Assembly (NCBI RefSeq): GCF_041886205.1
Contig: NZ_CP169029.1
Length of the DNA: 64,000 nucleotides
Source: Escherichia coli
GTDB lineage: Bacteria > Pseudomonadota > Gammaproteobacteria > Enterobacterales > Enterobacteriaceae
Direction: 5' to 3' (one strand)
The translations under genes were made by a program, and so were the position numbers. Numbering within the stretch: position 1 is the first letter of the stretch; each line of letters begins with the position of its first letter. This document shows positions 37,035 to 37,796 of the stretch, in pieces. The notes beneath the pieces are model-generated. The model did no database searches, was not told where the DNA came from, and saw only the letters and a list, made by a program, of their open reading frames with translations.

Positions 37035-37796
37035 TTAGAAATCATAACCAAGCATATAAATCATTTGATCGCCAAAACCATCGTAGCCTAACTTATTATC
37101 GAAATAACGCCACGTCACACTGGCTTTCCAGCGAGGACAGAACTTCCAGGCAACTGTTAAACCGCCATTTAGCCCATTCCGACCAAATTGTTGTTCCGCA
37201 TAGGCATCATTTCTGTCCAGTTCTATTTCATTCCAGTTAGATAAAACAAATTTTTCGTCAAATAACGTAAAAGGTAATACTGCTGTCCAACCAACAACAT
37301 AACCATTCCAGCCATTTGTTTGACCATATTTGGCTGAGACATAGTCTCCAGATTGATTATGTAATCCTATATACGGTTTAAAAAATCCCCACGAACCATT
37401 CCAGCCGAGGTAGCCCAAGCCATAAAACATATCAAGATCGTCACCCCATGAGTTATCCCATTGACCATAGATCTTGCCAAAGAAAGTCATATCGGAGTCA
37501 AAAAGTCTGACATGTGTCATAGCAGAAACGGTATGATTACGCCCCGCTACGGCATGGTTAAGCACATTGCTTTCATAAAATGAGTAAAACTCGGCTTCTT
37601 TAAAATTCACACCAAAGTCCGCAGTCACTTTCCATACTTCACCACGGTGAGTGTTAACGAAGCCACTATTCCAGTCAGCATAACCTGCATTTATTGAGCC
37701 AAAGGAACCTTTATATTCTAATGAAGAATATGCAGGAAGATGATAGATAATCGTTGTCAGGGCACACGCAATAAGAAGCCGTCTTTTGGCAGACAT
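37035..37796 (-). CDS. Small outer-membrane beta-barrel channel (KdgM/NanC/OmpL-like or Tsx-like)
   Basis: 253 aa, signal peptide, rich in Gly/Tyr/Trp/Asn with alternating hydrophobic residues, C-terminal ...YMLGYDF ending in Phe (OMP sorting signal); family assignment is tentative. Confidence 0.65.
   Translation of the reverse strand: MSAKRRLLIACALTTIIYHLPAYSSLEYKGSFGSINAGYADWNSGFVNTHRGEVWKVTADFGVNFKEAEFYSFYESNVLNHAVAGRNHTVSAMTHVRLFDSDMTFFGKIYGQWDNSWGDDLDMFYGLGYLGWNGSWGFFKPYIGLHNQSGDYVSAKYGQTNGWNGYVVGWTAVLPFTLFDEKFVLSNWNEIELDRNDAYAEQQFGRNGLNGGLTVAWKFCPRWKASVTWRYFDNKLGYDGFGDQMIYMLGYDF

Follow-up and report, generated by a model that had tools for sequence, protein, structure and literature searches.

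Where does translation of the sulfatase gene that lies directly behind a Tsx/OmpK-family channel gene in Escherichia coli begin, inside the channel gene or just past its stop codon? The question arises in a 64-kb stretch of E. coli DNA, called here the window, in which the longest sulfatase ORF starts at position 37051. The preliminary description had this ORF overlapping the 3' end of the channel gene by 17 nt and had pointed to a second in-frame ATG 12 codons downstream, at 37015 (MQKTLMASL), which removes the overlap; either coupling through the overlap or use of the downstream start was considered. Its coordinates and arithmetic proved correct, as did the removal of the overlap, which leaves a 19-nt gap; the codon at 37051 is however a TTG and not an ATG. 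The features on which the argument turns are as follows:

37796..37035, minus strand: Tsx/OmpK-family outer-membrane channel gene, 253 aa, ending ...MLGYDF-TAA, with the TAA stop at 37037-37035
37051..35522, minus strand: longest mechanical ORF of the sulfatase, 509 aa, starting with TTG (37051-37049)
37016..37051, minus strand: mechanical upstream extension of the sulfatase ORF, 12 codons, MVMISNFHKGII, with TTG 37051-37049 and ATG 37045-43; judged non-coding for the sulfatase
35522..37015, minus strand: sulfatase gene as read from the favoured start, 497 aa, S1 formylglycine-type family
37016..37034, minus strand: intergenic spacer of 19 nt, separating the sulfatase ATG from the channel stop
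37022..37026, minus strand: Shine-Dalgarno sequence AAGGA, 6 nt 5' of ATG 37015
36941..37015, minus strand: predicted Sec signal peptide, 25 aa, MQK / TLMASLIGLAVC / TGNAFNPAVA, with cleavage between AVA and AE
36779..36781, minus strand: AGT codon (Ser79) at the formylglycine position of C/S-x-P-x-R, from codon reading across loci
35444..35474, minus strand: terminator-like hairpin, 14-bp stem plus T-run, 48 nt past the sulfatase stop, from a pattern scan

Read from 37051 the in-frame codons are TTG GTT ATG ATT TCT AAT TTT CAT AAA GGA ATA ATT ATG CAG. The first in-frame ATG, at 37045, is codon 3 of the longest ORF and the second, at 37015, is codon 13, which yields MQKTLMASLIGLAVC... as the N-terminus. 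Overlap with the channel gene amounts to 17 nt from TTG 37051 (37035-37051) and to 11 nt from ATG 37045, and a start at ATG 37015 gives no overlap and the gap at 37034-37016. Upstream the sulfatase frame is closed by an in-frame TGA, 16 codons before ATG 37015. The product of the preceding gene belongs to the Tsx/OmpK family by its match to pfam PF03502 [Channel_Tsx; 52.9 bits, cut-off 27.2] and its aromatic C-terminus (...GYDF). The NCBIfam equivalog PRK11528 fell below its cut-off with this protein (123 vs 282), and a sequence search of solved structures returned no relative of it.

Inspection of the ribosome-binding sites showed that, among the three candidate starts, only ATG 37015 is preceded by a Shine-Dalgarno sequence. 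Pairing with the 3' end of 16S rRNA yields a duplex energy of -5.6 kcal/mol for the AAGGA before ATG 37015, as against -1.9 and -2.2 kcal/mol for the stretches of 25 nt that precede TTG 37051 and ATG 37045, respectively. In an overlapping coupled pair one would look for a start together with its ribosome-binding site inside the upstream gene, and at 37051 and 37045 no such site is present. Short overlaps are common in bacterial operons, and one might propose that the true start is TTG 37051 or ATG 37045 within the channel gene, with coupling through the 17-nt or 11-nt overlap and a 509- or 507-aa precursor carrying a long n-region. In favour of this proposal the frame is open, and contains both TTG and ATG, in the window allele and in the other E. 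coli alleles with a 19-nt spacer. Against it stand the lack of a Shine-Dalgarno sequence at either codon and, as set out below, the comparison of alleles and of species.

Among 5426 complete E. coli genomes 1277 have the locus, placed between mokC/hokC and nhaA, with alleles down to about 89% identity. When five E. coli alleles were aligned, the 19-nt spacer displayed three substitutions and a 1-nt indel, and the coding stretches flanking it displayed scattered single-base changes only. Judged from this alignment the spacer varies like non-coding DNA, which forms part of the case for ATG 37015 and counts against any start upstream of it. The ST131-type allele (read at locus L004) possesses one extra T in the spacer, making it 20 nt long and placing the TTG and ATG out of frame; here the frame of the conserved ATG meets a TGA 10 codons upstream, with no start codon between the two, and RefSeq annotates an intact 497-aa sulfatase. 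Of the 1272 complete E. coli genomes with the locus, 622 contain the exact 81-nt junction of the ST131 type and 300 the exact 19-nt junction of the A42/Nissle type. Since the upstream start is unavailable in an allele whose junction occurs in about half of the carriers, it is not the conserved start, and the frame-breaking allele brings the proposal of a start inside the channel gene close to refutation. The sulfatase is clearly functional in both E. coli lineages, to judge from a dN/dS of 0.03 when the window allele is compared with that of ST131.

Nine loci from outside E. coli were read, namely those of Salmonella (L006), Klebsiella (L008) and Atlantibacter (L010), together with metagenome or assembly loci L011-L014, L016 and L017. 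All nine have the conserved ATG with a Shine-Dalgarno-like purine block at the same place (-5.2 to -8.2 kcal/mol). An upstream in-frame start is missing in seven of them, including Salmonella and L016, and the remaining two have an upstream in-frame ATG at -8 codons (L011) and at -1 codon (L013). Neither the overlap nor its frame is conserved, given the additional T of the ST131-type allele and these seven loci. Wherever an orthologous locus has the channel gene 5' of the sulfatase the spacer measures 17-24 nt and always contains a Shine-Dalgarno sequence, and in Salmonella and L016 the same start is used though no same-strand channel gene precedes the sulfatase.

The proteins lead to the same codon. 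Among the best 120 homologs almost all are 497 aa in length, and the orthologs measure 497-505 aa. In the alignment of orthologs, which are 70-95% identical, no N-terminal column is invariant but that of Met13 of the long form (ATG 37015), and the 12 residues added upstream find no counterpart except a shorter upstream extension in the metagenome gene call P0119; conservation of these residues is a further point on which a start at TTG 37051 or ATG 37045 fails. RefSeq/PGAP places the start at the equivalent of 37015 (497 aa) in each of the six annotated E. coli records that were inspected, and uses the upstream codons in none of them. As the gene callers share one ribosome-binding-site logic, their agreement does not count as independent evidence. 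Overall, we regard a true start at TTG 37051 or ATG 37045 as extremely improbable. On the comparative pattern and the ribosome-binding site the sulfatase is in all likelihood translated from ATG 37015, and of the two possibilities originally considered the downstream start is strongly supported and the start inside the channel gene is not.

Two of the loci read deserve mention for their gene calls. In L011 (4001-4025), which is a JGI metagenome contig, the caller chose the upstream ATG, giving a 505-aa form which begins MIINKDVIM... The first base of this ATG is the last base of the channel stop codon, and we see here the same over-extension from another pipeline. In Klebsiella (L008, approximately 3940-4000) the DNA 5' of the sulfatase resembles the last 40 or so nt of the channel gene (...atgcgttatatgttgcgttatcaatttttaa...); the channel gene was not called there, and the sequence looks like the remnant of a deleted channel gene.

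How then does the overlap come about? The first codons of the extension are a +1 reading of the channel C-terminus, in that ...CTT GGT TAT GAT TTC TAA becomes TTG GTT ATG ATT TCT AA. when the frame is shifted. The extension from TTG 37051 and ATG 37045 is most probably an accidental by-product, that is, the conserved C-terminal end of the channel protein (...LGYDF and stop) read out of frame and, in this allele, kept in frame with the sulfatase by the length of the spacer. When the annotation of a genome with 100% identity here is taken as the standard, dnaJ, mokC, the sulfatase, the zinc-ribbon ORF and nhaR, which make up 5 of the 12 genes in the neighbourhood, have a mechanical ORF longer than the annotated gene through an upstream in-frame ATG, GTG or TTG, and the overlap pattern is therefore at the level of chance. 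The 17-nt overlap is almost certainly an artefact of the longest-ORF rule. A 70-aa ORF on the plus strand (37028..37240), antisense to the junction, was also considered; it is a mechanical ORF which nothing supports.

With ATG 37015 as the start, initiation would proceed as follows. The ribosome would be recruited by the AAGGA at 37026-37022, in the 19-nt spacer immediately behind the stop codon of the channel gene, and the product would be a 497-aa precursor whose first 25 residues would serve as a Sec signal peptide, directing export by the Sec pathway and being cleaved between AVA and AE. The channel gene and the sulfatase are presumably co-transcribed. Initiation at 37015 may be helped by ribosomes that have just completed the channel gene, whether they keep the site unfolded or re-initiate, and neither would need an overlap; coupling by proximity, from the TAA to 37015, is possible. 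No RNA fold able to hide or expose the start was found at the junction beyond chance (z = -0.31). An Rfam scan of 33-41 kb revealed nothing at the junction, its sole match being the sok antitoxin RNA beside mokC/hokC, and a promoter and terminator scan gave counts at the level of shuffled sequence, with no site between the channel gene and the sulfatase. The one site of note, the hairpin at 35474-35444, is only suggestive of a terminator, the total of sites in the region being at chance level.

One might also imagine that both kinds of start are employed, with ATG 37015 as the main one and, where the spacer is 19 nt long, a minor start at 37045 or 37051, leading to the same mature enzyme and having no functional consequence. 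Re-initiation at nearby upstream starts occurs in bacteria, the upstream codons are in frame in the window allele, and ribosomes terminating at the channel stop come within 8-14 nt of them, so that backward re-initiation after TAA 37037-35, for example, could be envisaged. These codons, however, have no Shine-Dalgarno sequence and lie within an actively translated ORF, and because the upstream starts show no conservation they are not under selection. Such dual initiation strikes us as very unlikely. Were it true it would be trivial, a low-level and polymorphic event of the 19-nt-spacer alleles which is lost in the 20-nt ST131-type allele.

The expectation that ATG 37015 gives a canonical signal peptide was borne out, as a prediction, by simple descriptors, namely the n-region, the hydrophobic core and the small-x-small site, and it was by these descriptors only that the signal peptide was judged. 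In the short form MQK(T) makes up an n-region of 4 aa with a single lysine, followed by the core LMASLIGLAVC (11 aa, mean KD 2.45) and the AVA-AE site; a short positively charged n-region, a hydrophobic core of 10-15 aa and a small-x-small site are what one expects of a Sec/signal-peptidase-I substrate. Most of the aligned orthologs likewise have, in the corresponding columns, a small-x-Ala pattern with Ala at its end. The long form would carry an n-region of 16 aa as against 4 aa. Either precursor would, by prediction, be cut at the same AVA-AE site to give an identical mature enzyme beginning AETKQPN..., and since the same mature protein arises from either start, N-terminal proteomics on the mature enzyme is a weak and non-discriminating test. 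In the proposed model the mature sulfatase would, given its predicted export, be periplasmic.

We also asked whether the N-terminus might instead be a lipoprotein signal with Cys15 (LAVC-TGN) as the modified residue, rather than a signal-peptidase-I substrate, given that the hydrophobic core terminates in a cysteine (LAVC). The Val at -1 misfits the lipobox L-[AS]-[GA]-C, the cysteine is not conserved (P0117 has LLLSTS and P0118 LMLAAS), and the small-x-Ala site farther downstream is present in most orthologs. The lipoprotein reading of Cys15 was rejected for its poor lipobox and unconserved cysteine, and we consider it a most improbable one.

The existing records describe the same arrangement. 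RefSeq/PGAP models of the island dnaJ-mokC...nhaA contain an "outer membrane protein OmpK" and a "sulfatase family protein" (WP_001274825.1 and WP_370612564.1 in strain ET201; WP_032296634.1 in strain LZSFT34). These two strains are identical to the window over the region, and in both the channel gene, named OmpK by RefSeq, has the same ends. At 100% DNA identity, with the same channel ends, the 37015-equivalent start and the 19-nt gap, there is no difference between the annotated island and the window. PDB entry 3ED4, an E. coli "arylsulfatase" from structural genomics, is near-identical to the sulfatase (1109 bits, residues 6-497 of the short form) and shares SSPSR; it differs from the window protein by a few substitutions, as an allelic variant would, and its construct is uninformative on the start used in vivo.

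Concerning the enzyme itself, pfam PF00884 matched residues 43-390 of the long form [1.6e-58, 198.9 bits against a cut-off of 25], and many solved sulfatases match at E<=1e-30. The C/S-x-P-x-R motif is present as S-S-P-S-R at residues 79-83 of the 497-aa form, that is, as its serine variant; the orthologs have C-S-P-S-R. Assignment to a named enzyme such as arylsulfatase or choline sulfatase was not possible, all NCBIfam matches lying far below their cut-offs (e.g. PRK13759, 186.8 vs 481). The Ser79 codon is AGT in all six E. coli alleles read, and a serine is found in 3ED4 too. Cysteine (TGT or TGC, CSPSR) occurs in all of the non-E. coli orthologs read, that is, in Salmonella, Klebsiella, Atlantibacter and the metagenome loci. 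The two residues are separated by a single T-to-A change, fixed across very divergent E. coli alleles.

In Atlantibacter (L010, 5551-6693) and in several metagenome loci (compare L011-L014 and L016) a gene for a radical SAM/SPASM maturase lies between the sulfatase and the zinc-ribbon ORF. At this position E. coli has about 129 nt left (35393-35521, minus strand), which contain the hairpin at 35474-35444. The maturase gene is also missing at the Klebsiella, Salmonella and L017 loci, though these have kept the cysteine. A tblastn search of the whole 64-kb window with the Atlantibacter maturase revealed no homolog (best E 0.8). The clusters of Atlantibacter and of L011-L014, composed of channel, sulfatase, maturase and zinc-ribbon genes, share with E. 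coli the order channel, sulfatase and zinc-ribbon protein of about 415 aa, and their sulfatases show 70-79% identity by alignment. The E. coli locus differs from them in being without a maturase gene and in having Ser for Cys at the formylglycine position. From the replacement of the catalytic Cys by Ser and the lack of a maturase gene at the locus, yet strong purifying selection (dN/dS 0.03, dS 0.6), it would follow that E. coli has a Ser-type periplasmic sulfatase, which might be matured in trans by a distant AslB/YdeM-like maturase or work without formylglycine; we offer this reading of the sequences tentatively, as possible and still rather doubtful. A search of the literature on this locus and on the maturation of Ser-type sulfatases in E. 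coli yielded nothing specific.

Over the sulfatase and ompK genes (35522-37796, minus strand) the window and the ST131-type allele differ by about 10.5% of their DNA, with a dS of 0.63 for the sulfatase and 0.53 for ompK and a dN/dS of 0.03-0.04. A dS of about 0.6 between E. coli allele groups is far above the usual within-species level. These two genes display a deep allelic split inside one species, and both are under strong purifying selection.

The third gene (34148-35428, minus strand) specifies a protein of about 415 aa with an N-terminal zinc-ribbon of the IS1/IS1595 type and no Pfam match. Its start is again ambiguous, the mechanical ORF beginning at 35428 vs the RefSeq start at 35392 (MFTNVNVDCC...). 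Together with the sulfatase it is found in E. coli, in Klebsiella and in the majority of the remaining enterobacterial and metagenome loci read, though not in Salmonella. On the other side of the channel gene the sok antitoxin RNA (RF01794, 122 bits) and mokC/hokC occupy 38258-38560 (plus strand), and an IS186/IS421 transposase gene (38632-39750, plus strand) lies between mokC and dnaJ. A copy of IS186/IS421 and the ompK-sulfatase island occur together in 21 of 5426 complete E. coli genomes.

The channel-sulfatase pair does not belong among overlapping, translationally coupled genes: of the two features examined, a start with its ribosome-binding site inside the upstream gene and a conserved overlap frame, neither is present. 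Their junction is an ordinary operon junction whose 19-nt spacer holds the ribosome-binding site, and it matches, as far as the sequence alone tells, the typical non-overlapping arrangement with the Shine-Dalgarno sequence just 3' of the upstream stop. In this neighbourhood calls by the longest ORF over-extend about 40% of the genes. The window is one more copy of an annotated locus with a gene model that is already known; the public model, with its 497 aa, its start at 37015 and its spacer of 19 nt, is confirmed, and the overlap that raised the question is a real but ordinary observation.
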